This document shows, piece after piece, positions 40,954 through 60,944 of a DNA stretch of 64,000 bases. The stretch is from assembly GCA_017561935.1 (NCBI GenBank), contig JAFZBE010000047.1, positions 19,680 to 83,679 on the forward strand, in the 5' to 3' direction. The notes under the pieces were generated by a model. It was not told the DNA's origin. It did not search any database and saw nothing but the letters and a program-made list of their open reading frames with translations. Position numbers and translations under genes: made by a program. This DNA comes from Bacteroidales bacterium. GTDB taxonomy: Bacteria; Bacteroidota; Bacteroidia; Bacteroidales; UBA3663. Numbering within the stretch: position 1 is the first letter of the stretch; each line of letters begins with the position of its first letter.

Positions 40954-40983
40954 ATTCTTATCCTTGCAACTCCCTCAAACTTT

Positions 40984-43509
40984 TCAAACTTTCGAACCCT
41001 TCAAACCTTTTTTCTTCTCTTTCGAAGAAAGCCTCCGATAGAGGAACGGCTCAACAACGTATGCAAACAGAACGGCTGCAATCATGCCCACCAATGTGGC
41101 AAAACCTACTGACTTGATGGCAGGATGCACAGCAAAGTTCATCGAACCAACGGTCACTATCAAGGCAAGAGCCGAGAAAAGGATGGCCGTCTTATGAAAG
41201 CCGAGGAGCTTGTTTTTGTGCGTATCCGCACCACCCTTCCCAATCAGGCCGTTCATCACGAAAATCGAGTAATCGACACCGATGCCGAAGATGAACGTCG
41301 AGATGATGATATTGATCAGGTTGAATCGTATGCCGAAGATGTTCATCGCACCCAGCACAATGATCCACGAGATGACAATGGGCAGGAAGCAAAGCAACGA
41401 GTTCTTCAGGTTGAACCTGAACGAAACCAGCAGCACAAGGAGCACGAAAGCCATCGAAACCCACTGCAGCACGTTGAAGTCCTGGCCAAGCTGGCGCAAG
41501 GTGTCTTGTGCATAGTAATAGGTGTCGAGCACCATCAGGTTGGGCTCGTTGGCCACAGCATCGCAGATGCGGTGATAGTCGGTCGAATCGCTGCGCACCG
41601 AGTCGAGCTCGCAATACACCGTGGTGAAGCAGAGGTATGAGCTGTCGTACGATTTCTCCATCAGCGTCGTGCGATATCCTTCGGGAATGAAATCCTGTTC
41701 ATAGAGGGCATCCGGCTCGTAATCGCGCGTGGCAGCTTCAAAGAACGGTTCGAAAGCCGAAGCATTCACACCCACCTTTGGTGCACATTTATTGATTAAC
41801 GTGCGCACGTTGGCAAGGCGTTCCTCGGTCCAGTAGTTGTGCCAGGCATCGATACGCTCCTGCTGTATCCGCTTAGGGATGAACAGTTCCGATGTGCGGG
41901 TATATTTGGTGACAAGACCGACTTGCTGCAACGAGTCGAGTTTCTCTGCCATGAGCGAGAAGTTCTCGATAGCCTCCTCCATCGTGGCACCGCTGGCAGC
42001 GAAATACTGATGACGGTCGCCCGAATCGGTCTTGTGGCGCACCAGCGCATCCGTCTCGGCAAGGTGCTTCGGCCAATAGCCCAGGTTGCGCATGTCGGCA
42101 TCGAAGTTGGTGCCTCCATAGATGTAGTAACCTACGCAAATCACGGTCAGCAGGGCAATAATGACCAGTAGAGGCTTGTTGCGGTCGATGGGATAGGCAT
42201 TGATGCGGTCGATGACCTTGAAGGCATGGCGGTTCATCTTGTTCTTTCTCTCGTCGAAGAACGGAGGCAGGAAAACCAGCGAGAACACCGTGGTGCCCAC
42301 AATGGCAAAAGTGGCAAACAGTCCGAAATCCTGTAGGAGGTCGGTCTGGATGAAGATGAGTCCGAGGAACGAGCCGATGGTGGTGATGCAGCCCATTAGC
42401 ACAGGCTTCACTTGGTCCTTCAGTACCTGTACGGGATCACCTACATACTTGTAGTGCGTGATGACATGCAGCACATAGCTCAAAGCCACGCCGAGCACCA
42501 CAGCACCGATGCCCAGGGCAAGAAGCGAGAACTGCCCTTTGATGAAGTACATCATCGCCAGGCCGAACACGGTGCCGAAGAATACTGGCAGCAACAACAG
42601 CGGGATGGTGTTCCAGTTGCGGAAGCAGATGAAGATGATGAGCAGCACGATGACCAGCGACCAGATGATATTGCTCTTGATGTCCTTCTTCAAGGTCCAC
42701 GAGTTATAGGCACCGTTGGCCGGCGAGCCGTAATAACCAATCTTTACACCAGGGGCCTTGGCCTCAAACTGCTGGATGTAATTGTTCATCCATTCGAAGA
42801 GGATAGCGCCGTGTCCCGAGTCAGTGCTCGCAAAACGTGGCGTGATGACGACTATGGCCACCGTCGAATCGGGCACCATCAGGTGGTTGTTGACAATCGA
42901 GTAGCTGCCACCCGCATTCATCAGCCCCTTCATCTGGTCCATCAGTACATAACGCATGCCGATAGGGTCCATCTGCAGCAGTTCGGGGAAAGCCTCACCG
43001 ATGAGGGTATTGGCCTGTGCCTTGTTCTCCAGCAGCTGATGCATGATGTGCGCCTCGGTCTGCAAGGTGTCGAAGCCAGCGTAAGCCGAGGTGTCGATGT
43101 AGTTGGGCATGTGTTGCTCCATGTAGTCGATGGCTTCGAACATGATGTCCTCGGTATGCACTTGGCTGAAAAGGTTGCCAATGGTGTGTTGACTCTCCGG
43201 ACGGCTATTGTCCTTGGCCTGAATGGAGTCGCAGAACGCATCCACCACCTGGCAGAGCGAATCCACACCAATGCCTTCGCGGTCGTGGAAGGCAATGAAG
43301 GTCTTGTCCTTGATTCTGAGGCTTGAGAAAGCTAGCTTGATGCTTCCGTCCTCATTCCTCGATGAAGGTAGGAGGCGCGCGACATCCTCCTCAAGGTAGA
43401 TTTTGGTCGAATAATAACCGAAGAACCCCAACAGCAAGGCCATGAGGATGATCCACACTGCCCTGTGCTTGTCGAAGTAATGATATATCTTGATGAAAAA
43501 GTTTGTCAT
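40984..43509 (-). CDS. MMPL/RND-superfamily exporter-like membrane protein
   Basis: 841 aa with two blocks of about 5-6 TM helices separated by large soluble loops. Confidence 0.7.
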   Translation of the reverse strand: MTNFFIKIYHYFDKHRAVWIILMALLLGFFGYYSTKIYLEEDVARLLPSSRNEDGSIKLAFSSLRIKDKTFIAFHDREGIGVDSLCQVVDAFCDSIQAKDNSRPESQHTIGNLFSQVHTEDIMFEAIDYMEQHMPNYIDTSAYAGFDTLQTEAHIMHQLLENKAQANTLIGEAFPELLQMDPIGMRYVLMDQMKGLMNAGGSYSIVNNHLMVPDSTVAIVVITPRFASTDSGHGAILFEWMNNYIQQFEAKAPGVKIGYYGSPANGAYNSWTLKKDIKSNIIWSLVIVLLIIFICFRNWNTIPLLLLPVFFGTVFGLAMMYFIKGQFSLLALGIGAVVLGVALSYVLHVITHYKYVGDPVQVLKDQVKPVLMGCITTIGSFLGLIFIQTDLLQDFGLFATFAIVGTTVFSLVFLPPFFDERKNKMNRHAFKVIDRINAYPIDRNKPLLVIIALLTVICVGYYIYGGTNFDADMRNLGYWPKHLAETDALVRHKTDSGDRHQYFAASGATMEEAIENFSLMAEKLDSLQQVGLVTKYTRTSELFIPKRIQQERIDAWHNYWTEERLANVRTLINKCAPKVGVNASAFEPFFEAATRDYEPDALYEQDFIPEGYRTTLMEKSYDSSYLCFTTVYCELDSVRSDSTDYHRICDAVANEPNLMVLDTYYYAQDTLRQLGQDFNVLQWVSMAFVLLVLLVSFRFNLKNSLLCFLPIVISWIIVLGAMNIFGIRFNLINIIISTFIFGIGVDYSIFVMNGLIGKGGADTHKNKLLGFHKTAILFSALALIVTVGSMNFAVHPAIKSVGFATLVGMIAAVLFAYVVEPFLYRRLSSKEKKKGLKGSKV

Positions 43510-43524
43510 TACGAATTATTATTG

Positions 43525-43914
43525 TTAGTTGTTAACTGCCAATTCCCCCTTGAGTTCCATATAGGTAGTTTCAGCATCGGCAATACTGGCCTGGATGATG
43601 TATGCCGAACTATCCTGGTTGGAAGTTAGCATCACGTTGACATCGACCAGAGGACAAACTTCGGGCGTGGCCACAGCCGTCAATCGACATTGCTTGATGG
43701 TCTTTATCATAAGGTTCTTGCCACTGAGCATCTCGGCACACTCGCGGATGGTCTCGATATTGCATACACCGGGGCACACCGGCTTATGAGGGAAGTGTCC
43801 ACGATAGACGTCGGCATCGGGAAGTAGCGCGATCAGATAGACGCCATGAAAGGGCGTCAGGATGTTCTCTTGCTGCACCTTGAAATATTTATCCTTTAGT
43901 AGCATAGTTTTCAT
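43525..43914 (-). CDS. FabZ/FabA-like beta-hydroxyacyl-ACP dehydratase
   Basis: YRGHFPHKPVCPGVCNIETIRECAEM contains the HFP..P..PGV dehydratase motif. Confidence 0.7.
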   Translation of the reverse strand: MKTMLLKDKYFKVQQENILTPFHGVYLIALLPDADVYRGHFPHKPVCPGVCNIETIRECAEMLSGKNLMIKTIKQCRLTAVATPEVCPLVDVNVMLTSNQDSSAYIIQASIADAETTYMELKGELAVNN

Positions 43915-43936
43915 TCGTAGGACATGGGTTCAACAA

Positions 43937-44362
43937 TCACTCGTCGGCCGTAAATATCTTCATCTGGGTGTCGGCCACCACTTCGCCATCCACGTTGGTT
44001 ACACCAGTGATGATGGTGATGCCATTCACCTCGGCACCCATGGTGACAGTGGTCTTGAGCACGTCGCCAATGGCTGGACGGCGATAGCAATGGAACTTCT
44101 TCACCTCGCCGATATATCCCACGGGAGCAGGTTCTCCCTTCACCACACAGCGATAGCCCGCAAAAGCACTGGCCGACTGAGCAATGTGCTCAATGAGTCC
44201 AGACTCCGACAGCAGCTGGTCATCCTCGATGAAGAAATTGTTGCCCCTGACGGCGAGTTCGGTCTCACACACGTCGCCCTCCACGCTGACCAGCGCATCG
44301 ACCATCATGATGGGGTCGCGCTGGGGAATCAGCTTCTTGATATCTTCTCCTTGATATAACAT
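43937..44362 (-). CDS. hotdog-fold dehydratase-like protein (second DH)
   Basis: LIPQRDPIMMVDALV...GLIEHIAQSASAF. It has the hotdog layout but no clear HFP motif. Confidence 0.6.
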   Translation of the reverse strand: MLYQGEDIKKLIPQRDPIMMVDALVSVEGDVCETELAVRGNNFFIEDDQLLSESGLIEHIAQSASAFAGYRCVVKGEPAPVGYIGEVKKFHCYRRPAIGDVLKTTVTMGAEVNGITIITGVTNVDGEVVADTQMKIFTADE

Positions 44363-44431
44363 GACAAATATAAGATTGCGCCCCGCGCACCATTGAAGGT
44401 TCGCAGGGCGCTTGATTACTAACTATCCGTC

Positions 44432-44674
44432 TTACTTCAGGTGGCTCTCGATGTAGTCGTAGAGCTGTGCGAAAGTCTTGACGGTGGGAAGGTCGGCAGC
44501 AGGAATCTTCACCTTGAAGGTGTGCTCAATCACTGCAACGAGGTCAACGAGCGAGAGGCTGTCGAGCTCAAGTGTGTCCTTGATGATGGCGTCGTCAGTC
44601 ATGACGTCCTGTTCAACCTCAAATTCCTCAGCGAGGACTTCCTTCACTTGATCGATAATTTCTTCACGTGTCAT
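44432..44674 (-). CDS. acyl carrier protein
   Basis: 80 aa with LELDSLSLVDLV, the phosphopantetheine Ser in a DSL context. Confidence 0.85.
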   Translation of the reverse strand: MTREEIIDQVKEVLAEEFEVEQDVMTDDAIIKDTLELDSLSLVDLVAVIEHTFKVKIPAADLPTVKTFAQLYDYIESHLK

Positions 44675-44692
44675 AGTTTTCTATTTTTTTAA

Positions 44693-45913
44693 TTAATAAT
44701 TCTTGATAATGAGTGTCGAGTTCGTGCCGCCAAAGCCGAAGCTGTTGCTGAGGAACATGTCAAAGTGTGCCTCCTGCGTCTTCGCAACGACGTTGATGCA
44801 AGCAGTCTCCTCGTCAGGCTCTTCGAAGTTGAGCGAACCGGCGATGAAGTTGTTCTTCATCATGAGGATCGAATAGATGGCCTCCGAAGCACCAGCCATC
44901 CACATCTCATGACCTGTCTGGCCCTTGGTCGAGGTCACGGGTACCTTAAAGTCGCCGAAGACATTAGCAATGGCCATGGCCTCGCGTCCGTCGCCAGCAT
45001 GCGTCGAAGTGGCGTGGGCATTCACATATCCGATCTCATGAACATCTACACCTGCGCTCTTCAAGGCAAGCTCCAGCGAACGCTGTGGGCCAGCCACGTT
45101 TGGCGTGCTGATGTGGTCGCCGTTGCCGCTGAAGCCCCAGCCGATAATCTCTGCAATGGGCTTGGCTCCACGTGCCAGCGCATGGTCAAGACTCTCGACG
45201 ATGAGCGTAGCCGCGCCACCGCCCGGCACGAGGCCATCACGGTTCTTGTCGAAGGGACGACTGGCCTTGGTGGGCTCATCCTCGCGAGTCGAGAATGCCT
45301 GGATGCCATCGAACGAACCAACCGACTCGGGGTTGACCTCCTGTGCGCCACCAGCAATGATGCAGTCCTGCAAGCCATCCTTGATGAGCAGATAGGCTAG
45401 GCCTAGTGCGTGGCTGCCCGATGCGCAAGCACCCGACGTGGTCAGGTTGATGCCGCGCAGATGGAACAGCGTAGCCAGATTCATCGTCACCGTCGAGTTC
45501 ATCGACTGGAAGATTGAACCCGAACCGCAGGCAGCGGTGTCCTTGTATTCGTAGATCTTGTTCACAGCCTTATATGTAGCCTGAGCCACCGAATCGTTGC
45601 CGAAGAGGATGCCCACTTCGTGCTCGTCAAGGAACTCCTGCGTGATGCCAGCCTGCTCCAGCGCCTGGCGGGTGGAACAATAGGCATACTGAGCCTCCTC
45701 AGGCATAAACTGTCGCTGATTGCGGAGGATGAGTTTCTTTAGGTCGGGCTTCTCGACGAAGGCAGTCAAAGCCGAGCGGAATCCCATGTCCTTACGGGTC
45801 TGGTCGAAAACGATACCTGATTTGCCGTTGTATAACGCATCTCTTACTGTATCCAAGTCATAGCCAAGGCAGGACCAGATTCCCATGCCTGTAATAACTA
45901 CTCTATTATTCAT
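44693..45913 (-). CDS. beta-ketoacyl-ACP synthase (KAS I/II-like)
   Basis: RVVITGMG, TSGACASGSHALG (active-site Cys), NAHATST, GHEMWMAGA, SNSFGFGGTNSTLI. Confidence 0.9.
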   Translation of the reverse strand: MNNRVVITGMGIWSCLGYDLDTVRDALYNGKSGIVFDQTRKDMGFRSALTAFVEKPDLKKLILRNQRQFMPEEAQYAYCSTRQALEQAGITQEFLDEHEVGILFGNDSVAQATYKAVNKIYEYKDTAACGSGSIFQSMNSTVTMNLATLFHLRGINLTTSGACASGSHALGLAYLLIKDGLQDCIIAGGAQEVNPESVGSFDGIQAFSTREDEPTKASRPFDKNRDGLVPGGGAATLIVESLDHALARGAKPIAEIIGWGFSGNGDHISTPNVAGPQRSLELALKSAGVDVHEIGYVNAHATSTHAGDGREAMAIANVFGDFKVPVTSTKGQTGHEMWMAGASEAIYSILMMKNNFIAGSLNFEEPDEETACINVVAKTQEAHFDMFLSNSFGFGGTNSTLIIKNY

Positions 45914-45960: not shown

Positions 45961-46085
45961 ACGCTTTTTTTCGTATTATCCTAATAATTTGTCGAAAATC
46001 GGCCGCAATTTCACAGAAAGCAAAAAAAACGTCTGTTTTTTATAAAAAATTACATCTATAATTTGCATTTTTCAAAAAGAAGTCT

Positions 46086-46093
46086 TATCTTTG
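46086..46093 (+). promoter_or_regulatory. -7 box (TATCTTTG) for ssrA
   Basis: tatctttg ends 11 nt before the GGGGCTGA 5' end of the tmRNA. Confidence 0.6.
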
Positions 46094-46104
46094 CACCCTC
46101 AAAC

Positions 46105-46498
46105 GGGGCTGACTGGCTTTGACAGCGGGATGGGCCTCTGTGTAAGCATGCAGTGAGATGTCACCTATCACTATAATACATGATGGCGAAATATAATTGG
46201 CGAGAATAACTACGCTCTTGCTGCTTAATCGAAGTATAGTAGATTGAAGCTTAATCGGCTGCCAAGGGTGGCTGACAAGACATCACCCCAAGGTCCTTGT
46301 TCCGAGACTGAGGAACCGGTGGTGCAGGTAAATCGGGACTAATCAGGGTCTGCCTCGCGGCTCTGGTGAAATTTTTGAGGATAAGGTGCCGCTTGGTGGT
46401 CCAGGTCTTGGCGACACCCGACAATCCAGGCTGGAATAAGCATGTAGAAAGCGCCGATACCCCCTGTTTGGACGAGGGTTCGAACCCCTCCAGCTCCA
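46105..46498 (+). ncRNA. ssrA: tmRNA (transfer-messenger RNA)
   Basis: The 5' GGGGCTGA pairs with the 3' CAGCTCC-A acceptor end. T-arm GGTTCGAACCCCTC. Tag ORF ggc gag aat aac tac gct ctt gct gct taa = GENNYALAA* at 46199-46228. Confidence 0.92.
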
Positions 46499-46500
46499 CA

Positions 46501-46538
46501 AAAATCCTACGCAGAGTACGTTCTGCGTAGGATTTTTT
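46501..46538. terminator. rho-independent terminator of ssrA (may also end the convergent minus-strand operon)
   Basis: aaaatcctacgcaga / tctgcgtaggatttt is a 15-bp stem followed by a T run. Confidence 0.85.
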
Positions 46539-46594
46539 GTCAACTAATCTTTTTACTAACCTTTTTTGTCAAATAGTTCTGACTATACCATTTT

Positions 46595-47617
46595 TCATTC
46601 TTTAATGATAAACCCTATGAGCCGAGGTCCGCTTCCTCCACCACAGGCAAGGAGGAAAAGAATGAAGATAATGCTGCCAATCCATCCCATCAGATAGACC
46701 ATGTGGCCGATGAACATCACCAGGAACAGGAAAGTGGCCAATGCACTCACCACATAGAGGGGGACATAAATCGCAAAGCCGATCAGTCCCGTCACACCCT
46801 TGTCGCCATCGATAAACATCGCGATAAGATGGAGTGCCAATCCGACGAAGAGAAGCAGAATGATCCACGGCTGGAGGAATGAGAAGAAGAAAAAGGTGAG
46901 CAGATAAAGGATTCCGCAGCCAAATACCGTAAGCGTACCGATATGTTTTGCGGCCGATCGCGCTTCATCCTCTCCCGCCAATCCGAAAAAGATGGATTGG
47001 ACAAAGAACAGGATGGACAGCATGACCAGCCAGAACACGATGGAGAACAACTCATCGTGAACGAAGAATCCAGGACTTCCACTATAGCCCAGCATACATT
47101 TCAACTCGTAATAGCCTAAAATGGCCAATCCCATCAAAGGGATGTATTTCCCCAAACGGAAGCTGCCAAAAATCTTGGATAATATCCAGCAAACCAACAA
47201 TACGATAAGCGGCAAGAAAAGCATATACTCGAAATAGCGGGTGGATTTGCTTTGCTCAATATGGATGCCAACGGAAGACAATGCATTCAGGAAATGTTTC
47301 TGAACGACCACAGCGGGATCCTTCACGTCTGCCTCGGGTTTTCCACCTACATCACCCGAAGTCGGTGATTTCCCTTTCTCCAAATACCTTGAAGCTACAT
47401 AGAATGTCTCGCCGGCATCATTCCTGCAGGTGGCCCATCCATTGACGATGGTATCCACGAGGATGACATCACCCTTCTTCAGTTCGCCCATTTTTTCGGC
47501 CGAGCCTTTAGGTGCTACCCTCATGTTCAGATTCGGGGAATTCACCACATAGGTTTCTGCTGCATAGCCCGCCATGCATAGCAGTAACAGTACGATAATT
47601 GTGACTAGTCTTTTCAT
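46595..47617 (-). CDS. signal-peptide SH3b-domain protein with about 6 C-terminal TM helices
   Basis: MKRLVTIIVLLLLCMAGYAA. YVVNSPNLNMRVAPKGSAEKMGELKKGDVILVDTIVNGWATC..FYVASRYL (bacterial SH3 pattern). Then long hydrophobic segments. Confidence 0.65.
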   Translation of the reverse strand: MKRLVTIIVLLLLCMAGYAAETYVVNSPNLNMRVAPKGSAEKMGELKKGDVILVDTIVNGWATCRNDAGETFYVASRYLEKGKSPTSGDVGGKPEADVKDPAVVVQKHFLNALSSVGIHIEQSKSTRYFEYMLFLPLIVLLVCWILSKIFGSFRLGKYIPLMGLAILGYYELKCMLGYSGSPGFFVHDELFSIVFWLVMLSILFFVQSIFFGLAGEDEARSAAKHIGTLTVFGCGILYLLTFFFFSFLQPWIILLLFVGLALHLIAMFIDGDKGVTGLIGFAIYVPLYVVSALATFLFLVMFIGHMVYLMGWIGSIIFILFLLACGGGSGPRLIGFIIKE

Positions 47618-47635
47618 AATATTATATTTTTGCCA

Positions 47636-50600
47636 TTAGTTTTTCAGTCCATCAATCTGGTTGAGCAGTTGCATGGTAGAAGCCATGTCGGCCTGTTCGA
47701 GAGCAACAAGACGTTCCTGCAAAGCCCTCTGTTTCAAAAGATATTCCAATCCCACACAGACCTCTGCCATATCAAGACGACCATAGTCGATAGCTGTCTG
47801 ACAAAGCATGCGCAGGAATTCGATCAACAGCTGGAAATCCTCGACACGACCTTTCTCGAAAACGGATTCATTGAGTATCGAGGCTATCTTCTCGCGATAC
47901 TCATCGGCCGAAGCCATATCATTATTCACCATATCCACCTGGGCACGAGTGGCATAGTAGTGCAGGGCTACGTTACGCACCTTGAGCGAATCGGGCATCA
48001 TCTTTGTCATCTTTTCGACCACCTCACCGGCAGATTTCAGGAAAAGAAGCGCCTTCGCGCCATCACCTGCACTCATTGCTGACACACGAGCCTGACGAAC
48101 CTTGTTGATCACAAAACTGCGCATCTTGTCGTCGTTATCAGGATCAGCATCAAGCTTCATTGACAGGATGTCCGATGCCGCCTGCAGGCTTGCCAGCGCA
48201 TCGGCGGTCTTTCCCTGCTTGTCGAGCATCTCGCCCAACTCATCGAAGATCAATGCCTTGTTCATCGGGTCGGGCTCGGCATCAGGCTTCTGACCAACCT
48301 TTTCCAATACCTGACGTCCAAGTGCTACTGCCTCATCGGTCTTGCCGCTTACCTTCAGCCGCATCATCTGATAATAGGCTGCCACCAGCAAATCGTCGGC
48401 ATGAAGGGAATCGGGGTTGCTCTCGAACAACTCTTCGAAGAGCTTGATAGCCTGTCCGGCACTCTGCTGGGCCTGGTCATATTCGTGGAAGAACTGGAAC
48501 AACATTCTGCCCGTGCCATCCAGTGCCGCCGCATAACGACGGACAACCTCGGGATTGCCTTCACGGAAACGCCGGTAGTTGTTGAAGACGGCATACTCAT
48601 GTTGCTTCTGATAGTAGAACGCGCTATTGTAGTCGCCATACTGCTCATAGTACTTGCTGATAACCGAATAGGCCAACGAATAGGCCGTAGTGGTGATAGC
48701 CGTATTGTTATGAGCACGTTTCATATCATTGATGGCATCGCGCAGCATCGATATCAGATTCTCGGCCGACTTGTGATCGCCATGATAGAGGTACAACTCG
48801 TTGCACAATTCGCCGGCGCTGCACAGGTTGTAGAAACTGAGCTGCAGGTACAATTCTGTTGCTGCATTACCATTCCTGTTAATATCCAGTATTGTACGGA
48901 AAGTGTGGAGAGCCTCAGCCACCCGTCCTGGCATATCGGCATGACTTGAGCTGTTCTTGCATAGGACGTTCCGCAACATCGAGGACAGGGAAGCAGCCGA
49001 TGCAGCCTCTTCTTCAGGAAGATGTTGCATTTGCCGATAGTCATCATAGTCGGGAATGGCTGCACCGAGAACTGCCGAAGCCTCGTCGGCCATATTGAGC
49101 ATCAGACGACCCATGAAGTCATCACCGGCCTCGAAAATAAGACCTGAGCCCTGGTGCAACAGCAAGGACATGGTATGTTTGCTGTTCACCCAACTGAAGG
49201 AATCGTAAACGTATGCCTCTCCTTTCCTGATCTGCCCGGCAGTTTCGGTATTGAAGATGCCCACTATCTCGGCTGCTGTCTTCTTATCGCCTGTATAGCT
49301 GAGGAACGTGGCAATATCCCTGGCAAGCACAACCGCATTGTCATTCCCGATATCCAGGACTTTCCTGAACCACTGGACAAAGTCATGACGGCGCTCGGAA
49401 AGGGCGATGGCGGCATTCACCAGATGGGGCCATACGAGAGAGGATGTATTGGAAAGAACCGCCTTCAGAACCTCTTCGGTGGGATTGTTGATTGCAATGG
49501 CTCCCATCTCGCGGCAAGCAAACTCATCATTCGGATTCTGATAAAGCAGATTGCCCATTCTGGCCGTGATATTCGCGTAGAAGTTCCCGAACGGCTCGTC
49601 ATCCTCATGGTGAACATACTTCACAATCCGGCGATAGCTCTGATAGGAAAAGTCAATGACGCCTGTACGGGAGTCGATCGTCAACAGGTCGCCCAACCAT
49701 CGTTTCATTGAAGAAAACTCCAACTGGTTCCAATAATCTCCCGCAAATGCCTGGAAATCCTGTTCACGCAAGCCGAAGCCGGTAGCAGCCAACAGGCGGA
49801 TGGAAGTCCATAGGAAACCGAAATTCATGAAACGGGCTGCGTCGTGGAGAAATACGATGAACAACTGTTCCGGATAAGGTGCAATCCGGCCCATCTCGTC
49901 GGTGATCTCCGTCAGGTAATTCTCGATGGCGGCATCTCCGTCGCCACGCATTCGGATCTGCTCATAATCGTAGGCTGTCAGACTTGTCAGTTTGCGTACC
50001 ATCAGCACATCCCATAACGGGCAGCCGCAACACAGTTCGTCATGCTCGGAGCGGGCATCCATCAGGTGATTGAGGACATTCTGCGGAAGGCTCTTGCCTT
50101 TCGCCTTCATCAATTCCCGAACAATCTGCCCACCTTCATCGGCATTGACAGGAGGCAAGAGAACCTTCGCGACATCCCATTCGGAGAAAAGATTCATCTT
50201 CTCGCTTTCTGCGGTAGCGATGAGCATACAGAAGTTCTGAAGTCCACCGAACATGAACTCATAGACATTCTGCATCAGATGAAGATCGTCGATGAGAAGG
50301 AGTGGTGGCATTTCAAGGTCCTTGGTAGCATGATAGAACTCCTCGGCCAGTTCACCGAACTCCACATCCTCGTCAAGACTGTAGCGGCGCTGTGGATGGA
50401 TTCGGGGGTCGGCAAGCCATTTTTTCAGCGCCAAAGCGGGAGTGTCGCCATAACGGGTAAAGTGGATGAACACCAACAGATCATCGACCTCCCCAAATCT
50501 TCGGTATGTTTCGCAGAGGAAAGCGGTTTTCCCATAGCCATAGCGGGCATAGATTAGACGGGGTTTCTGGTCTTCATCATATCTTGTCGCAATCTCGTTC

Positions 50601-51421
50601 AAGAAATTCTTGCGCGAATCGCAGTTCACATAGTGCTCACCTTCTTTTGCAATCTTCATGAGGTCGGCATCCGCCATCTGCTGGAACTCATTCACAGGAT
50701 TCTCCACTGCATTACTACCCTCATATAACATAATCTGAGCTTGCAGGGTCTTGATGAGGAACGATCCCAAGTCATCGAGTCCGGTCAACGATCGACCATC
50801 CCATCGGCAATTGTACTCATATATATTATTGCTACAGCTGGCTTTTTGGCAACCATCCTCAATCTTCTGCTTCAATGATGCAAGTTTGCGGTCGGCCTCG
50901 TCATTCAGGTTGCAGAACTTACGGCGAGCGACATCGTCCATCTGCTCATAGACGGCTGGATTGCGGAAACAGAACAGACAACGGCGCAAGGAGTTGGCAT
51001 CCATCAGGGCACCGAAGAGCATCTCAAGCTCTGTAACACTCTTCTGCTCACGGGATTCCTTACGGATGTACGTTCTTTCCTCGTCGGTCATCTCATCCAG
51101 CATCACCTGCCAACTTTCGGCCGATGGTATCCAGCCATAACGGTCGCCAAGCAGACCGATAAAGAATGGACGTGACTGGCGAATCTCAGAGATACACTCA
51201 CGCAGCACAATATTCTCCCGTTCATTCTCGTCGGCGTCCTGGGTGTTTACCCCCCAGCGCAAGTCGATGAACTGCAGCGTGAAGCCCTGTGGCGCCAGCA
51301 GCTGCTGAAGAGTCGGCGCGACTCTGTTCATGATCAGATCGCGCTCAGCATCCATGTCCTTGAAGGTACTGCTCAGGAACACCTTGATGTTCTTCCCGTT
51401 CTGCATGGCAGTATATGTCAT
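47636..51421 (-). CDS. STAND-type NTPase: DUF4062-like N-terminal domain + P-loop NTPase + C-terminal TPR-like repeats
   Basis: KVFLSSTFKDMDAERDL...FIGLLGDRYGWIP (aa 13-99). Walker A ARYGYGKT (nt 50525-50548). Walker B LLLIDDL (nt 50282-50302). The last ~400 aa form a helical repeat region with TPR-like periodicity. Confidence 0.8.
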   Translation of the reverse strand: MTYTAMQNGKNIKVFLSSTFKDMDAERDLIMNRVAPTLQQLLAPQGFTLQFIDLRWGVNTQDADENERENIVLRECISEIRQSRPFFIGLLGDRYGWIPSAESWQVMLDEMTDEERTYIRKESREQKSVTELEMLFGALMDANSLRRCLFCFRNPAVYEQMDDVARRKFCNLNDEADRKLASLKQKIEDGCQKASCSNNIYEYNCRWDGRSLTGLDDLGSFLIKTLQAQIMLYEGSNAVENPVNEFQQMADADLMKIAKEGEHYVNCDSRKNFLNEIATRYDEDQKPRLIYARYGYGKTAFLCETYRRFGEVDDLLVFIHFTRYGDTPALALKKWLADPRIHPQRRYSLDEDVEFGELAEEFYHATKDLEMPPLLLIDDLHLMQNVYEFMFGGLQNFCMLIATAESEKMNLFSEWDVAKVLLPPVNADEGGQIVRELMKAKGKSLPQNVLNHLMDARSEHDELCCGCPLWDVLMVRKLTSLTAYDYEQIRMRGDGDAAIENYLTEITDEMGRIAPYPEQLFIVFLHDAARFMNFGFLWTSIRLLAATGFGLREQDFQAFAGDYWNQLEFSSMKRWLGDLLTIDSRTGVIDFSYQSYRRIVKYVHHEDDEPFGNFYANITARMGNLLYQNPNDEFACREMGAIAINNPTEEVLKAVLSNTSSLVWPHLVNAAIALSERRHDFVQWFRKVLDIGNDNAVVLARDIATFLSYTGDKKTAAEIVGIFNTETAGQIRKGEAYVYDSFSWVNSKHTMSLLLHQGSGLIFEAGDDFMGRLMLNMADEASAVLGAAIPDYDDYRQMQHLPEEEAASAASLSSMLRNVLCKNSSSHADMPGRVAEALHTFRTILDINRNGNAATELYLQLSFYNLCSAGELCNELYLYHGDHKSAENLISMLRDAINDMKRAHNNTAITTTAYSLAYSVISKYYEQYGDYNSAFYYQKQHEYAVFNNYRRFREGNPEVVRRYAAALDGTGRMLFQFFHEYDQAQQSAGQAIKLFEELFESNPDSLHADDLLVAAYYQMMRLKVSGKTDEAVALGRQVLEKVGQKPDAEPDPMNKALIFDELGEMLDKQGKTADALASLQAASDILSMKLDADPDNDDKMRSFVINKVRQARVSAMSAGDGAKALLFLKSAGEVVEKMTKMMPDSLKVRNVALHYYATRAQVDMVNNDMASADEYREKIASILNESVFEKGRVEDFQLLIEFLRMLCQTAIDYGRLDMAEVCVGLEYLLKQRALQERLVALEQADMASTMQLLNQIDGLKN

Positions 51422-52362
51422 AAGGATGTCATATATGGTCGAATGTGGGAGAATATGCCCTCCTGCAATTGATCGACATTGATCATCAGATAGAGCAACC
51501 CCATGTCATAGAAACGCAGGTCGAAATAGTCGCTGGCATCGGTATCCAACTGCAACAGCTGTACCCATCCCGTTCCAAACTCGTTGTCCACATCCTCCTC
51601 GTAGGGCTTGCCTAAAAGTCGGAACCCATCACCACGCACTGGACCTTCTGAGAAGGTGATGATATGAGGCGATATCATATCGTCCTCCTGGAATGGATTT
51701 ACGCGTTTCAATTTGCAGGAGGGCACATCGGCATAAATGACCTTGACAGCATATTCCGGCCACTTGCCCAGTCCGTATGGTTGCTTCACGTCATAGCCGA
51801 GAAAATAGTCTATCTCGCCGAAGAACCAAAGCATCCCCCGCTTGGGCAACCAGTCATTATCGGGAAGATCCCCGCAGTTGATCTGACAAATGAACTGCAT
51901 GGGATACCTATTGCCGTCTTCATCGGTCGTGAAGGGATACATATCCTCGGAAGGCAACTGTGGGGCATCCCAGAAATAACTGCTGCCCGAAGGCTGTGCG
52001 ACGTCGGATGGAGTCAGTTCCATATCAATCCCATGGGGCCTTGCCAATTTGACACAATGCTGTATCTCGGATTGAATCCCCCACATGGCAGCTTCCGAAT
52101 CTGCCCGTATTCCTTCACTCAGTACCACCTCCTCACCCGTCTTGATAGTGTACTCCATGCCTCTGTACTCCAGGCCGAGCTGTCTTCCGTCGTAGAATGT
52201 CACTACAGGATTATCCCCCTTGCAATTATTCCAATGAGGTAGTTCTTGTCCTACGACAAGTTCCTCTTCAGGAATTTCGTACTGCTGCATGAGACTCCTG
52301 CCCATATTGACACCACGGTCGTGGGGTATTTCATAGATGTTGATGTAACAAACTGAAGACAT
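51418..52362 (-). CDS. DUF1963 (YwqG-like) domain protein
   Basis: YPMQFICQINCGDLPDNDWLPKRGMLWFFGE and WVQLLQLDTD...FYDMGLLYLMI match the DUF1963 pattern. The stop overlaps the STAND start (ATGA). Confidence 0.65.
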   Translation of the reverse strand: MSSVCYINIYEIPHDRGVNMGRSLMQQYEIPEEELVVGQELPHWNNCKGDNPVVTFYDGRQLGLEYRGMEYTIKTGEEVVLSEGIRADSEAAMWGIQSEIQHCVKLARPHGIDMELTPSDVAQPSGSSYFWDAPQLPSEDMYPFTTDEDGNRYPMQFICQINCGDLPDNDWLPKRGMLWFFGEIDYFLGYDVKQPYGLGKWPEYAVKVIYADVPSCKLKRVNPFQEDDMISPHIITFSEGPVRGDGFRLLGKPYEEDVDNEFGTGWVQLLQLDTDASDYFDLRFYDMGLLYLMINVDQLQEGIFSHIRPYMTSL

Positions 52363-52373
52363 CGTTATATCGT

Positions 52374-52985
52374 TTAGTCAAATATTACTCTTGGGTTCAT
52401 TATTCCTGGCGAACGCCATTCTATACCATATTCTGCCAACAGTTCACGTTTAGCCGACCAATAGCGGAAACAGAAGCCCATGTGGCGTGGCACACCCTTC
52501 AGTTCTTCATAGAGTCTTCGCTCTACTTCGTCAATCACCGACAGATAAGCATCGCTGTCCTCAACAGGGTCGTATTTCAGTGAGGGATTCTCCAGCCGGT
52601 CAAGACTGTACTCACAGTTCTCTTTGTCTTCCTCATCAATGGCATGATGGAGAGCTTTCTGAAAGGCTTTCTTTGCCATCAGGCGACGCGTATTCATCGA
52701 GTAGCATTCGCCTATGTCAAAATATGAGCGACACTTCCATTTGGCATTCTCTTCCGTATCCGGCTGGTCGTCGAGGAGCTCTTCGGCCTTAGCCAGAAGA
52801 GGCATCGCCAACCAACCCCGCTCATCACGGATATAGTTATCAGCCAGCTTTATCAATGCTATCACATAGTCGGAAATAGTCCCCTGATTAGGATTCTGCT
52901 CGTAAATCCGTCTGGTGATATCCACCAACTTCTCCTCATCAGAAGCCAGGTTTTCTGCCTGGCGAAGAACTGTTTTAGTATCCAT
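52374..52985 (-). CDS. hypothetical helical protein with conserved-looking C-terminal module
   Basis: 203 aa with a helical/TPR-like N-half. C-terminus RHMGFCFRYWSAKRELLAEYGIEWRSPGIMNPRVIFD. It is the first gene of the operon. Confidence 0.55.
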   Translation of the reverse strand: MDTKTVLRQAENLASDEEKLVDITRRIYEQNPNQGTISDYVIALIKLADNYIRDERGWLAMPLLAKAEELLDDQPDTEENAKWKCRSYFDIGECYSMNTRRLMAKKAFQKALHHAIDEEDKENCEYSLDRLENPSLKYDPVEDSDAYLSVIDEVERRLYEELKGVPRHMGFCFRYWSAKRELLAEYGIEWRSPGIMNPRVIFD

Positions 52986-53016
52986 GATTTTAGTTTTATG
53001 TTGTTATATTGTGGGG

Positions 53017-53024
53017 CAAATATA
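53017..53024 (-). promoter_or_regulatory. -7 box (TATATTTG) for the four-gene STAND operon
   Basis: The plus strand reads caaatata, 32 nt upstream of the ATG at 52985. Confidence 0.55.
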
Positions 53025-53498
53025 GGTGAAAAAAATGAAAGAACAAAATTAAAAGCGAAAAAATTATAGAAAAGTTTTGGACCCTATTTATTTTATGCAC
53101 GAAGTGCAATTATATGCAGGTATTGGACCTGCAATTTTCCGGCCTGAAGAATGCTGTTGAATCAGCATTCGAAGGGAGAGGCCCCATTCTTGGGGACTGC
53201 CTTAGCCGATTATATTAATCCGGGCTATTGAAGCCCACGTCTCAAATCCATTTTCACCTCCTTTTCTTGATATTATCGGTTTCTGTTTTCGATTTGTCGA
53301 AATGGATACTGCAAATATAGCGATATTTTGATAAATGTCCAAATAAATTGGAATCTTTTTGGAAAAAGAGTTAAAAAAATGAGTGGCATCCGTAATGGAT
53401 GTCCTACTCGATCTTGCCATAGGGCGCTTGTTAGCAAAAATTAACGTTTCTATTCAAAAAAATTACCGTTTAAATTTGCAGGTTTCGCAGAAAACCAT

Positions 53499-53506
53499 TA
53501 TCTTTG
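53499..53506 (+). promoter_or_regulatory. -7 box (TATCTTTG) for the 53543 gene
   Basis: tatctttg lies 37 nt upstream of the ATG. A second TAAATTTG box is at 53471-53478. Confidence 0.5.
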
Positions 53507-53542
53507 CAGCCGCGAATTGATAAGATGATGGTTGGATTTTAG

Positions 53543-54247
53543 ATGTTTGAGAAGATGGAAGCACTAAAGCAGTTGATTCTAGAAACATTGGCCACTCGTT
53601 TCGAAGGTGAGGAGTGGACCAAATTTGTGACGCTCGAACAGATCGCCGATGCTATGGTCAATGGTATCGACATTATGAAACTCAGGGATATCCTGGCCAA
53701 GAAGGCCGATAGGCGTCCCTTTACACTCTCAATGATCCGAAGGGAGAAGATGGTTAATCACAACTCTGTGGCCGGTTATTGGGAGATTTGTGCGGTGCGT
53801 GGTGACGAGCAGATCGTCATCCCATTTACTAACAGGTATTCGAAGGTGCTTTACACCTTCTTTATGCTGCATCCTGGACAAGAGTTCACGCTCGCGGGTC
53901 TTCAGAAGTACCACGGTGAGTTCAGACGTATTGCGCTCGCCCTGTTTTATGACTCGGAGAAAACTCACACCAAAGCTACACTCCTTGATGCTGAGAAGAT
54001 TGCCACCACGATGTGCAGTCGCTTCGGATTATCGGAAAAGGAGGGAAGCAACAATGAGCGTTCGGTGGCTCTTTCCAGGGCAAAGAGGTCCGTCCTCGAC
54101 ACTCTTGGCGAGGCGGCAGGCGATTACGTTATTCAGAGGACTTCAGACAAGGAGAAGCGCGTGCTGCGTCTTGCGCCCAATCTTGTACGTGTTCCTGAAG
54201 CATTCCGTGAAATCGTTGAAGGTTGGCAAGGGGGCCTTGTGGCGTAA
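53543..54247 (+). CDS. hypothetical protein (234 aa)
   Basis: Clean ORF with its own promoter and a downstream hairpin. I recognise no motif. Confidence 0.55.
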   Translation: MFEKMEALKQLILETLATRFEGEEWTKFVTLEQIADAMVNGIDIMKLRDILAKKADRRPFTLSMIRREKMVNHNSVAGYWEICAVRGDEQIVIPFTNRYSKVLYTFFMLHPGQEFTLAGLQKYHGEFRRIALALFYDSEKTHTKATLLDAEKIATTMCSRFGLSEKEGSNNERSVALSRAKRSVLDTLGEAAGDYVIQRTSDKEKRVLRLAPNLVRVPEAFREIVEGWQGGLVA

Positions 54248-55437: not shown

Positions 55438-56856
55438 TTATTGGTTAGAGAGCATGTCGGCTATTAATGGACATTCTCCTTTGCGCCACAAGCATTTATT
55501 ATTTAATTGACGTTCATATAATATGTATGCGGTGAACTCCATAAGGGATGATACATAATCGAACTGTACTCCCCCTTTAGGGCTATTTATTCCATCAAGA
55601 ATCCATTCTTCAATTCCATCTGGAACATCCTGAAAAAAGTAATATTTTTCTTCCTCACTGGCATTGGGTGGTAGATGTTTATTATAAACCAAGAAGTTTA
55701 CATCAAGAAGGTCTATGTCAATTCCAAATAGTTCTTTCCAGATACATTTCATTTCGTCATTTTGAGAAATGGCATTTTCAAGTGTCCTATCTACAGGTTC
55801 GTCATCAAATTCAGGATCATATTCAACTCTAAATTCATTATGACACAAATCTCCTTTAAGAAGGATATCCCAAGCTTTTGTGACATAGTATAAAGGTACT
55901 TCATAGGTGCCACCTTTTACTACGGTATTCAAAGATAGATCGTATCGTTTATTTACAATACGTTCTTTAAAAACTTCAGGAAGAATATAAAATACGCAAC
56001 CGATACTAATTATATCAGTGTTTTTTTCCCATTCTTTATTGGTTCTATTCCATTTGTCGTTTTCAATAATCTTCTCAACCACTGACTCAAAGCGCGTTTT
56101 AAGTTCTGGATAATTGTTTGCGGCAATTCCCCAACCTTCTACTTCAGTCTTATCAGGTGAAATAAAATTCCCATATAATCGTAAGTCTTTGTCTGAAATC
56201 TTAGTTGTTGTTGAATAGCCTTTATATTCAAGATGGTATTGCTTAGCTTGATAAAAGGATTCAATTATTTCAGACTTCAATCTTATTTTTTTGCTATTTC
56301 TGAGAGTAGTGTATATCCTTCGGACCAAGTCTTCAACGCGTGAAAACATACTCTTCCCAATTCTGTCTTCAGTAGAATTATATGTATAAAAGATACAGCA
56401 TTCTTCTAATGGAACACTAAGATCGCTTTTCCAATATTTCTCATGATAATTGCCTGGATTGCCTATCAATAGTTTAATGCCCATAGTGTAGATGTCGCCT
56501 GAATTCTTTTCATTGCCAAGAATAAACTCCTTTGGAGAATCTTTTTTGTTTAAAAGTAGATTTTCGAGCCATTCAAATATATGCTTGATATCTGTCATCG
56601 TGAAATCAAAATAGAGACGTTCATTGTAGAATCCATTAACGTTAATCTCCAATATTCCGGACTGTTTGGAATAGTTCAGAATGTCGGTAATTATATCACC
56701 TAAATGATTAGGCAAATTATTCATAAGTTTATCAATTTCCTTTTGTATTGTTTCCTCTTTCATATTCGAATGTATAAATGATGATTCATAATCAATGTCT
56801 ATATCGCAGGCATGAGTGTGTGTCTTTCCCTTTTTTACCTTGAAATGGGTAAACAT
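55438..56856 (-). CDS. hypothetical protein (472 aa) in an AT-rich patch
   Basis: Long clean ORF with a K/N/I/E/Y-rich product. It is visibly lower in GC than the flanking genes. I recognise no motif. Confidence 0.6.
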   Translation of the reverse strand: MFTHFKVKKGKTHTHACDIDIDYESSFIHSNMKEETIQKEIDKLMNNLPNHLGDIITDILNYSKQSGILEINVNGFYNERLYFDFTMTDIKHIFEWLENLLLNKKDSPKEFILGNEKNSGDIYTMGIKLLIGNPGNYHEKYWKSDLSVPLEECCIFYTYNSTEDRIGKSMFSRVEDLVRRIYTTLRNSKKIRLKSEIIESFYQAKQYHLEYKGYSTTTKISDKDLRLYGNFISPDKTEVEGWGIAANNYPELKTRFESVVEKIIENDKWNRTNKEWEKNTDIISIGCVFYILPEVFKERIVNKRYDLSLNTVVKGGTYEVPLYYVTKAWDILLKGDLCHNEFRVEYDPEFDDEPVDRTLENAISQNDEMKCIWKELFGIDIDLLDVNFLVYNKHLPPNASEEEKYYFFQDVPDGIEEWILDGINSPKGGVQFDYVSSLMEFTAYILYERQLNNKCLWRKGECPLIADMLSNQ

Positions 56857-58753: not shown

Positions 58754-58859
58754 AGCATTATTTTTGACATAAGATGCATTCAGCAAGAAAAATGAAGGGT
58801 TGGGTTCATTTTTTCCAAAATTCAACCGATTGCACACGGACAAAAACGTGGGAGGATGA

Positions 58860-59280
58860 TGGAAAGTCGAGGTATAACCAATTTTGGCCAAGAAAGGGTA
58901 TTCTTCGGTGGGAGAAAGACCAAAGTTGGCCAAGAAAGGGTATGCCGCGATGGGAGCATGACCAGTTTTGGCCAAGAAAGGGTATGCTGCGGTTGGATAG
59001 AGCACTCTGACGGGCGACAGAGTGCTTGCTCCGGTTGAAGTATGACCAAAGTTGGCCAAGAAAGGGTATGCCGACGTTGGAGAATGACCAGTTTTGGCTA
59101 AGAAAGGGTATGTCTCGGTTGGATAGAGCACTCTGACGGGCGACAGGATGCTTGCTCCGGTTGGAATATGACCGATCTTGGCCGAGAAAGGGTATGCGGA
59201 GGTTGGAGAATGACCATTTTCGGCCGAGAAAGGGTATGCCGCGATAGGAGTATAACCAGTCTTGGCCAAGAATGGTCATA
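58860..59280. repeat. 42-bp tandem repeat array with 126-bp higher-order periodicity
   Basis: The core GGCCAAGAAAGGGTA (and variants) starts at 58886, 58928, 58970, 59054, 59096, 59180, 59222 and 59264, so spacings are 42 or 84 bp. Every third unit is replaced by a hairpin-bearing unit (agcactctg-N8-cagagtgct at 59001-59026, degenerate copy at 59127-59152). Confidence 0.85.
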
Positions 59281-59297
59281 GTGCTGACGGAGATGCA

Positions 59298-59532
59298 TCA
59301 TTCTTCATTCTGAGCGGACTTCTCGTTGCGGGAGCGGAGTTTCTCGGCATTTTCGATGATGATCTTCCAGGAAACGCTGATCGACATTCAGGTAGAAGGC
59401 GACTTCCTGTGCGGAGTGAGTCTTTACTCATTTGACATAATCGACGACGGCATCGACGGCGATCTGTCCGGTGGGAGCCCCTCCTGTCTTCCAGAGCTCC
59501 TCAACTGTGGTAATTTGTTTGATAAAAATCAT
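59298..59532 (-). pseudogene. decayed small HTH-like gene (in-frame TGA plus apparent frameshift)
   Basis: MIFIKQITTVEELWKTGGAPTGQIAVDAVVDYVK-TGA(59428-59430)-VKTHSAQEVAFYLNV... Protein-like sequence then continues in the +1 frame (MSISVSWKIIIENAEKLRSRNEKSAQNEE*). Confidence 0.3.
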
Positions 59533-59566
59533 ACTGTTTGTTTTTTAAGGGTTAATATTGGTTTTT

Positions 59567-59650
59567 TTATCACGAATTGGCGAATTATAGAATTATTATG
59601 GCGGGTGGACTTCTGTCCTGTCAATTCTTTAATTCTCGAATTCGTGATTA
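59567..59650. repeat. TIR-bounded short element, copy 1
   Basis: TTATCACGAATTGGCGAATTATAGAATTATTAT ... GTCAATTCTTTAATTCTCGAATTCGTGAT. The termini ATCACGAATT/AATTCGTGAT are inverted repeats. Confidence 0.7.
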
Positions 59651-59666
59651 AGAAATGCTTCGCTCA

Positions 59667-59773: not shown

Positions 59774-59799
59774 CTCGCTGTCCTCTATCTCCTTTCTCT

Positions 59800-60934: not shown

Positions 60935-60944
60935 TGGTTTTTTT

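Follow-up and report, generated by a model that had tools for sequence, protein, structure and literature searches.

It was not until 2026 that the NIR domain, listed in Pfam as DUF4062, came to be known as an immune effector with NADase activity, and all cases tested so far are one- or two-gene systems from Proteobacteria and Firmicutes. Depletion of NAD+ by this domain, with abortive-infection-type protection as the result, has been described for Avs2, Vulcan and Vesta (preprint, 10.64898/2026.09.04.749371), for Swarozyc (preprint, 10.64898/2026.05.01.722283) and for Evangelion (preprint, 10.64898/2026.06.25.731849), and approximately 20% of NIR genes lie near known defence genes according to the 2026 preprints. 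The catalytic residue is a glutamate, E97 in KpSwz, E108 in PsAvs2 and, as published for the NIR domain of human TEP1, E1008. In a 64,000-nucleotide (nt) stretch of a contig from a gut or rumen Bacteroidales bacterium, a stretch referred to below as the window, four packed minus-strand genes (g1 to g4) lie next to the transfer-messenger RNA (tmRNA) gene ssrA, and the product of the third, g3, is by its sequence an NIR-STAND-TPR protein of the NLR-like type, i.e. another member of the recently defined NIR-bearing kind. On balance, the locus is probably a reduced, still functional version of a modular Bacteroidales cluster organised around an NLR-like, NAD+-depleting g3 with an anti-phage role, in which g1 and g2 would act as accessory proteins.

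The N-terminus of g3 had been proposed from sequence to resemble DUF4062, and this was borne out: residues 13-101 match the Pfam model (PF13271) at 2.6e-11, with 44 bits against a cut-off of 24.7, and the TIR-like NADase nature of the domain is shown in the 2026 preprints. Residues 10-188 match the TEP1 NIR domain (PDB 11gz_A) at E=1e-23 in a single-sequence phmmer search, and a profile of the g3 family reaches the same structure at 2e-44. In this alignment the g3 motif SVTELE lies opposite SVTEME of TEP1, and E133 of g3 pairs with E1008 by inferred chain numbering (894-1113). In an alignment of 24 homologues, the most distant of which have 18% identity, the same residues occupy positions S128, T130 and E133 throughout, likewise G295, G297 and D378 of the P-loop, and K298 is nearly invariant. 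The assignment of the centre as a P-loop NTPase is supported, and the nucleotides originally given for its Walker A and Walker B motifs are correct. From the domain content of g3 we infer an NADase activity and an anti-phage role.

Searched alone against the curated STAND models of Pfam, g3 gave only ATPase_2 at E=0.056, under the cut-off. Its relatives bear precomputed Pfam NACHT, NPHP3_N, nSTAND1/3, AAA_16 and TPR domains, and a profile of the central region matches the NB-ARC domain of the plant TIR-NLR RPP1 (7crb, 6.8e-6) as well as ADR2, the archaeal STAND protein PH0952 and Cdc6. The C-terminal repeats gave a weak match to Pfam TPR_12 and a match to NCBIfam FxSxx_TPR at residues 894-1092, and a profile of the C-terminal third reached kinesin light chain, OGT and consensus TPRs at 1e-14 to 1e-27. 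All three parts of the STAND/NLR-like layout in the original prediction, the TPR repeats included, were recovered, with NIR at residues 10-188, the P-loop at ~290-440, TPR at ~850-1240 and a STAND module of ~600 aa between NIR and TPR. Within g3, the ratio of nonsynonymous to synonymous substitution rates (dN/dS) is lowest in the NIR domain (0.05-0.12) and highest in the TPR region (0.21-0.27), a pattern such as would be expected for a constrained effector joined to a diversifying sensor, and the TPR array is presumed to be that sensor. A swapped C-terminal sensor in close relatives was considered and rejected, as the apparent '63% coverage' came from an indel of ~96 aa that split the BLAST alignment. 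A segment of ~97 aa is present in the nearest relatives and lacking in g3.

The order g1-g2-g3 was found in at least 15 loci, among them P0001, P0007, P0010 and P0020, in which g3 identity falls from 94 through 75 and 54 to 38%, as well as L018-L028 and L034, and in the most distant of these loci g1 and g2 still have 30% and 46% identity, respectively. All four genes are under purifying selection, with dN/dS of 0.10-0.31 overall and 0.10-0.22 for g1 and g2. This extends to the comparison between two four-gene copies: the four-gene form recurs in another genome, from which the window copy differs by ~20% at synonymous sites, and dN/dS between the two is 0.11-0.22. The retention of order across divergent genomes, together with purifying selection, argues that g1-g2-g3 is a co-inherited unit; of the synteny proposed for all four genes, that of g1-g2-g3 thus holds down to 38% g3 identity, with g4 variable. 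The nearest relatives have the arrangement g1-g2-g3-AAA+-g4-x697, where x697 is a two-transmembrane (2TM)/RCK-like protein, other relatives have g1-g2-g3-AAA+-zinc ribbon-kinase-like-AAA+, and elsewhere the fourth position is taken by AAA+ ATPase, zinc-ribbon, kinase-like or 2TM/RCK-like proteins. The window operon is without both x697 and the 2.5-kb AAA+ gene that separates g3 from g4 in the nearest relatives, and is read as a reduced form because those relatives have these extra genes.

The first gene, g1, had been described as a 203-aa helical protein; its helical character was confirmed by an AlphaFold2 (AF2) model with a mean predicted local distance difference test score (pLDDT) of 94, and its description required amendment in that every relative is longer (229-230 aa), the window copy having a 26-aa in-frame deletion, and in that two parts can be told apart. 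A 3-TPR-like helical module (~residues 16-132) is followed by a helical C-terminal domain of ~70 aa (134-203), which ends in NPRVIFD-COOH. Foldseek searches of the model against PDB and BFVD returned only generic TPR/Sel1 folds (a loose resemblance to the chaperone TPRs of IpgC, SGT and HOP at E~1e-2, TM-score ~0.5) and no structural match to the C-terminal domain; there were likewise no matches to g1 in Pfam or NCBIfam, and a profile search against PDB sequences gave nothing. The C-terminal ~70 aa therefore appear, from these searches, to be a previously unnamed domain without a Pfam model. It is strikingly conserved; its consensus, LKYDPVE...PRxMGFCFxYWSxK..L..YGIEWxSP..MNPRVxFD, always closes the protein in the family alignment, and an exhaustive HMMER search recovered 1589 clusters (at 50% identity) at E<=1e-3, with the domain extending to the last residue in nearly all of the 150 matches listed. 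It occurs alone (69-130 aa) or behind TPR/Sel1 repeats, leucine-rich repeats (LRR) or, in a single case, a PP2C phosphatase, fusions of the sort that a docking domain would be expected to form. Comparison of the g1 and g3 families with hhalign gave weak TPR-TPR similarity and no common homotypic domain.

The second gene, g2, encodes a TYPP/DUF1963 (YwqG-like) domain at residues ~111-314 behind a variable N-terminal extension of ~110 aa, and the shorter versions in relatives (205-228 aa) align to residues 111-314. The DUF1963/YwqG-like assignment made for it earlier is upheld by Pfam (PF09234, in two stretches, 3e-15, 57.6 bits against a cut-off of 23) and by a match to the YwqG structure (PDB 1pv5, E=6e-4) in which both repeats are aligned; the TYPP motifs LLGKP and QLLQLDTD were recognised by eye only. 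The DUF1963 superfamily was defined as the TYPP domain by Burroughs and Aravind, who predicted it to be a peptide-binding, chaperone-like module (PMC4275035), and in eukaryotes two of its members, Tsr4 and PDCD2, act as dedicated chaperones for the ribosomal protein uS5 (PMC6648895, PMC7736825). No paper linking DUF1963, YwqG or TYPP to phage defence was found in the literature search.

A scan for g1-like genes in one genome per species gave 393 loci, almost all from gut or rumen Bacteroidales; partners were tallied in 79 of the best 80 of these loci from our own open reading frame (ORF) calls and phmmer queries, a rough method applied to a biased sample. In 35 of the 79 loci the g1-like gene has a TYPP gene at a distance of no more than 1.5 kb, and in 42 there is one anywhere in the locus; an NPCBM-domain protein, often with a small SH3 protein, is present in 17, an NIR-STAND gene in 14 and a zinc ribbon-Ser/Thr kinase-triple AAA+-FHA-PP2C cluster in ~12. 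The g1-TYPP pairing is strong, and the link to NIR-STAND proteins is recurrent, not exclusive. In L052 a g1-like gene runs into the start of another, different NIR protein, and in L085 and L096 a kinase/AAA/FHA/PP2C cluster that starts with a g1-like gene is closed by another NIR protein.

This cluster, which recurs in Bacteroidales, comprises a zinc-ribbon (DZR) protein, a membrane Ser/Thr kinase of ~1100 aa, a triple CbbX-like AAA+ protein of ~1100 aa, a DZR-FHA protein and a PP2C phosphatase, and was seen in L016, L043, L050, L051, L055, L060, L061, L072, L080-L082, L085, L096 and L098, often edged by g1-like and TYPP genes and sometimes by an NIR-STAND protein. It is apparently undescribed so far, and a search of Kaur et al. 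2020 for a kinase/AAA/FHA/PP2C-TYPP cluster gave no description; its kinase/phosphatase modules have PADLOC matches to mad6, PD-T4-6 and MkoA.

It is possible, and is put forward tentatively, that g1 and g2 form an adaptor/co-chaperone pair that links NLR-like NADases, membrane Ser/Thr kinases with FHA/PP2C, multi-AAA+ ATPases and NPCBM-SH3 envelope proteins into one immune network of gut and rumen Bacteroidales. This suggestion draws on the chaperone-type TPR of g1, the TYPP fold of g2, the docking-like C-terminal domain of g1 and the attachment of the pair to several large signalling proteins; the invariant FD-COOH tail of g1 might be bound by the TYPP groove or by a TPR groove.

The four ORFs (Table 1) are exactly as first described, with a gap of 11 nt between g1 and g2, a 4-nt ATGA overlap between g2 and g3 and a gap of 18 nt between g3 and g4. 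The overlap is present in the ORF calls as claimed; as the true start of g3 it may be mistaken, because all g3 relatives begin at Met6 of the window protein (51404-51406), a start that would give an 11-nt gap between g2 and g3. The -7 box attributed to the operon was confirmed on the minus strand. Motifs of the TAnnTTTG type are enriched in the window (46 matches against 25 expected), a window scan found no minus-strand copy between the ends of the operon, where terminator-like sites do not exceed chance level either, all of which fits transcription as a single unit from one Bacteroidetes-type promoter. The four-gene unit and ssrA are convergent and meet at a hairpin bordered by A and T runs, the end point originally suggested for the operon and the sole strong hairpin downstream of g4, which is the ssrA terminator on the plus strand and serves the operon end as well.

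Table 1. Positions of the operon, its predicted domains and the adjoining features in the window
Feature	Position (nt)	Strand	Basis or remark
g1	52374-52985	minus	203 aa ORF
g2	51418-52362	minus	314 aa ORF
g3	47636-51421	minus	1261 aa ORF (1256 aa if starting at Met6, nt 51406)
g4	46595-47617	minus	340 aa ORF
NIR/DUF4062 TIR-like domain of g3	50858-51394 (residues 10-188)	minus	phmmer against PDB 11gz_A
Predicted catalytic Glu E133 of g3, motif SVTELE	51023-51025	minus	alignment to TEP1; codons checked
P-loop NTPase core of g3	50282-50539	minus	Walker A and Walker B conservation
Walker A GYGKT of g3	50525-50539 (residues 295-299, K298)	minus	codon check
Walker B LLLIDDL of g3	50282-50302 (residues 374-380, D378)	minus	codon check
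TPR-like C-terminal array of g3	47702-48874 (~residues 850-1240)	minus	Pfam/NCBIfam/profile matches
Cassette as inherited (promoter region and four genes)	46593-53051	minus	blastn against L001
-7 box TATATTTG	53017-53024	minus	sequence read; ~32 nt upstream of g1 ATG
Second TAnnTTTG-type match TAATTTTG	53044-53051	minus	sequence read and scan
tmRNA gene ssrA	46105-46501	plus	ARAGORN; Rfam 116.7 bits
Perfect 16-bp hairpin, between ssrA and g4	46500-46537		inverted-repeat search, sequence read

The cassette is mobile between genomic contexts. In a metagenome-assembled genome (MAG) of a rumen Bacteroidales (L001), a copy with 93% nucleotide identity (blastn) over 46593-52927 and 52923-53051 of the window is located between an NQR operon and GH9 cellulase genes and not at ssrA; the homology runs from ~65 nt upstream of g1 to the g4 stop codon, and the flanks are unrelated. 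Elsewhere its immediate neighbours include a HipA toxin gene, IS110 transposases and Peptidase_S24 gene pairs: in L020 (8038-9305) the genes directly upstream are a HipA toxin pair, and in L034 (7038-10318) they are two IS110 transposase genes, with g1 split into two ORFs. Upstream of the cassette, the window (53281-53359) and L001 (7899-7977) share a 79-nt piece with a TATATTTG box, in opposite orientation, and in L001 this piece drives a 137-aa gene and a Peptidase_S24 gene; it was considered as an inverton and rejected, there being no flanking inverted repeats, and probably represents a neighbouring promoter that has been rearranged.

Within this lineage, what lies next to ssrA varies. A metagenome scan with the tmRNA 3' end recovered seven related contigs, all seven of which are without the cassette after ssrA; an exact-match metagenome scan with the ssrA terminator gave nothing. 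These contigs are 83-93% identical to the window through the gene cluster left of ssrA and ssrA itself, and homology is lost within ~40-70 nt past ssrA. Since the seven relatives diverge right after ssrA, and in two of them (L108 and L112) a homologue of a repeat gene found further right in the window lies only ~1.9 kb downstream, the stretch from ~46.6 to ~58.8 kb of the window is strain-specific DNA, and one of its genes has 34% GC. This repeat gene, a 157-aa ORF (58806-59279, minus) with nine tandem 42-nt units (58844-59305) encoding 14-aa repeats, marks the ancestral right-hand neighbour of ssrA, given its place in those relatives. An ssrA-targeted integrative island was considered and rejected for lack of an att-like repeat and of an integrase: the final 23 nt of ssrA do not recur in the window (<=3 mismatches), beyond which the far border could lie, and there is no integrase or transposase domain in 46.6-64 kb.

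Several findings weigh against an anti-phage reading of the operon. No recognised defence system flanks it; PADLOC gave no meaningful match for the four proteins and eight window neighbours except a WYL regulator 9 kb away, NCBIfam was uninformative for the operon and gave nothing for the neighbours, and the Avs family models of PADLOC-DB v2.0 gave no match for g3 at E<=0.1. The absence of any PADLOC-DB v2 match to the partner proteins does agree with the earlier statement that the partners are not part of a named defence system. Housekeeping or glycan-utilisation genes make up most of the neighbours in other genomes, and viral contigs and plasmids are essentially devoid of the family. Among 50 well-flanked g1-like loci there are 14 in which none of the partners tallied above was recognised and the neighbours are housekeeping genes (PnuC, MTHFR, two-component systems), so that the g1 family is not confined to defence-like contexts. 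Relatives of g3 without g1 and g2 exist (P0027 and L101), and the pair is thus not obligatory for g3. The window copy could be partly disabled, since the AAA+ gene is gone and g1 and g3 are shorter by 26 aa and ~97 aa, respectively. Finally, the three key sources on NIR are preprints, and the function of the operon, the roles of the partners and the interactions among the four proteins are predicted from sequence.

It is conceivable, if somewhat unlikely, that the operon is instead a stripped-down, non-defence branch of a cellular signalling network for envelope or nutritional cues, with g3 as a regulated NAD+-turnover or growth-arrest output and g1 and g2 as scaffolds. The edging of DZR-kinase-AAAx3-FHA-PP2C clusters by g1-like and TYPP genes in ~12 of the 79 loci, the single fusion of a g1 C-terminal domain to PP2C, the many cluster members that are membrane proteins with 2TM/RCK-like or 6-TM parts, and the frequent housekeeping neighbours without enrichment of known defence genes would all fit such a network. 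However, every bacterial NIR protein tested to date is an anti-phage effector, kinase/phosphatase modules are also found in defence systems (the PADLOC systems mad6, PD-T4-6 and MkoA), and the patchy, context-switching distribution of the cassette, here in a strain-variable spot, is more typical of accessory immunity genes.

A further alternative concerns the two small upstream genes, which could be passengers on the transcript, either immunity-like or orphan adaptor genes, with g3, with or without g4, acting as a self-contained NLR defence like Avs. The original prediction had raised the orphan immunity version; both this version and the passenger reading in general are unlikely. There was no polymorphic-toxin gene with a trafficking domain (Rhs, LXG, type VI secretion and the like) and no immunity array within ~10 kb in the window by Pfam, NCBIfam and PADLOC, i.e. 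no toxin or secretion genes nearby, and the order g1-g2-g3 is kept to the low identities given above, with g1 and g2 under purifying selection. Transcription would begin ahead of g1, where the promoter is located, inheritance of the cassette is as one unit, and L052, L085 and L096 are independent instances of g1-like genes adjacent to NIR proteins. These points have to be set against the facts that Avs-type NIR-STAND proteins act alone, that P0027 and L101 have g3 relatives without the pair, and that there are loci in which g1-like and TYPP genes have no STAND protein with them.

The last gene, g4, had been described as a signal-peptide SH3b protein with about six transmembrane (TM) helices, and this was upheld: a hydropathy scan gave a signal peptide and 5-6 TM helices, and between these lie a periplasmic SH3b domain (~residues 25-81; Pfam SH3_3 at 3e-5, 24.5 bits, just under the cut-off of 27) and a linker. 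The family is narrow (nine clusters), and an AF2 model built from nine homologues was unusable (pLDDT 47.7). Beside g3, or g3 and the AAA+ gene, g4 is found in L018-L022, L024 and L101, in the last of these next to a g3-type gene though g1 and g2 are absent, and a 35%-identical homologue is located inside an AAA+/DZR/FHA cluster. It had been suggested that this membrane protein is the executioner, and the retention of a polytopic membrane protein beside g3 in several arrangements, with other membrane proteins (2TM/RCK-like, x309) in similar positions in relatives, could indicate that g4 disrupts the membrane while g3 is mainly a sensor or scaffold. This is very unlikely. The NADase domain of g3 is intact and strongly constrained, has the lowest dN/dS in the protein and keeps its invariant catalytic Glu, so that the g3 NIR domain, not g4, is the likely executioner; no pore-forming or known effector family was detected in g4 by Pfam or PADLOC; and many g1-g2-g3 loci are without g4 (L004, L005, L009 and L025-L028). 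It is not a fixed fourth gene, and its variability argues against a core executioner role.

The losses relative to the nearest relatives (the AAA+ and x697 genes, 26 aa of g1 and ~97 aa of g3) could also be taken to mean that the window copy is a decaying, non-functional remnant of a larger cluster, a reading that is extremely improbable given four intact ORFs in which every deletion is in frame, intact catalytic and NTPase motifs, and the recurrence of the same four-gene form under selective constraint in the second genome.

If the operon is, as favoured here, a compact NIR-STAND defence locus, a mechanism can be proposed by analogy with characterised NIR and STAND systems, and for g3 it is well grounded in homology. 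The protein would stay an autoinhibited monomer until its TPR array recognised either a phage protein or a change that phage infection causes in a host complex, these being the most probable triggers. Its STAND NTPase would then oligomerise with ATP (K298, D378), the NIR domain would hydrolyse NAD+ via E133, and the loss of NAD+ would stop growth and abort the infection. As adaptor, dedicated co-chaperone or guarded complex, g1 and g2 would either relay the signal to g3 or keep it competent and silent, and g4 would be an envelope-facing input or a secondary effector; we infer every step in which g1, g2 or g4 takes part.

Several further features were observed in the window. Left of ssrA, the core-genome cluster that is 83-93% identical in relatives (~37400-45900) is an aryl-polyene/flexirubin-like (fatty acid synthase-like) cluster encoding ketoacyl synthase (KAS), acyl carrier protein (ACP), FabA-like dehydratases, an MMPL exporter, an FAD oxidoreductase, a short-chain dehydrogenase/reductase (SDR), a LolA-like protein and a thioesterase. 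The ssrA promoter region (46044-46103) and a stretch upstream of the ORF at 53543-54247 (53457-53516) are 72% similar over 60 nt and so flank ssrA and the cassette, which may be mere shared promoter architecture. A 472-aa ORF (55438-56856, minus) in a patch of 34% GC, against ~52% elsewhere, has no Pfam, NCBIfam or PADLOC match and was probably acquired horizontally. Further right, a 32-nt inverted repeat (59563-59594/59887-59918, 91% complementary) encloses 292 nt and is accompanied by direct repeats (59566-59654 and 59799-59918), making an invertible or mobile element possible, and five copies of a 43-78-nt repeat at 60938-61401, each with a minus-strand TAACTTTG (-7-like) box and then GTCCGnATTT mini-repeats, form a promoter-like array upstream of, or overlapping, the ORF at 60068-61042. 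The WYL regulator is of WYL-WCX type (61639-62571, plus, 310 aa) and is followed after a 5-nt gap by a 358-aa ORF ending at 63653, the two being a candidate regulator-effector pair of the type often met in defence loci.

What is new here is the conserved pair of TPR-plus-C-terminal-domain (TPR-CTD) and TYPP proteins, the SH3b membrane protein and the kinship with a kinase/AAA+/FHA/PP2C network, for which there was no description in PADLOC-DB v2 or the literature searched. With this locus, the abundant Bacteroidales of gut and rumen gain an NLR-type NIR protein, to which the human TEP1 NIR domain is the nearest solved structure, and with which two conserved helpers from families lacking known bacterial function are inherited; the related loci reveal a wider modular network of kinase, FHA, PP2C, AAA+, zinc-ribbon and membrane proteins, of which this four-gene version is compact and easy to clone and dissect. 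Should the helpers prove necessary, the operon would be a tractable bacterial model for the control of NLR-like receptors by accessory proteins. To our knowledge, there is no bacterial TYPP protein with a known client, and g2, if the proposal is true, would be the first for which a client and function are found; in the same case, the locus would parallel, in bacteria, NLR signalling that is assisted by chaperones or guards, and would define a new docking domain of ~70 aa (~1,600 clusters at 50% identity).

Among described systems, PsAvs2 of Pseudomonas chlororaphis (Le Mouellic et al. 2026, 10.64898/2026.09.04.749371) is like g3 in having an N-terminal NIR domain with a catalytic Glu, a STAND NTPase and TPR-type repeats, and the expected logic of sensing, oligomerisation, NAD+ depletion and growth arrest is alike. 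However, PsAvs2 is a single gene, whereas g3 belongs to a conserved operon with TPR-CTD, TYPP and membrane partners in another host phylum, and g3 matches no Avs model and has a sensor region unrelated by sequence to that of PsAvs2. Swarozyc, Evangelion, Vulcan and Vesta, one-protein or two-gene systems for which NAD+ depletion and abortive infection have been demonstrated by experiment, share the DUF4062/NIR effector and its catalytic Glu; unlike g3, they have no STAND NTPase, and sensing falls to an AUX stalk, to HEAT repeats or to a small C-terminal domain, while the partner of Vesta is an alkaline phosphatase in place of TYPP and TPR-CTD proteins. The eukaryotic proteins TEP1, NWD1, NWD2 and NPHP3 have the same NIR-then-NACHT-like order, with TEP1 the nearest in structure to the g3 NIR domain, but carry WD40 or TROVE modules, act in vaults or cilia and have no operon partners. 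The bNACHT and TIR-STAND defence proteins (10.1101/2022.07.19.500537) are likened to g3 by architecture, effector-NTPase-repeat, and by patchy mobile distribution, their effectors being nuclease, TIR or SIR2 where that of g3 is NIR. Tsr4 and PDCD2 belong to the same TYPP superfamily as g2, a family predicted to bind extended peptides, but they serve ribosome assembly, whereas g2 has a TPR-CTD protein and an NLR-like NADase as its genomic partners. In plants and animals, the SGT1-RAR1-HSP90 system, in which NLRs are kept stable and competent by a TPR co-chaperone that has a conserved C-terminal domain, and the TerY-P-like defence triads, in which kinase/phosphatase modules accompany immune effectors, are analogies only, hypothetical as regards g1 and g2 and with no sequence relationship. 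The kinase/PP2C modules of TerY-P recall the extended clusters found in relatives of the operon, whereas the window has no kinase, FHA or PP2C gene.

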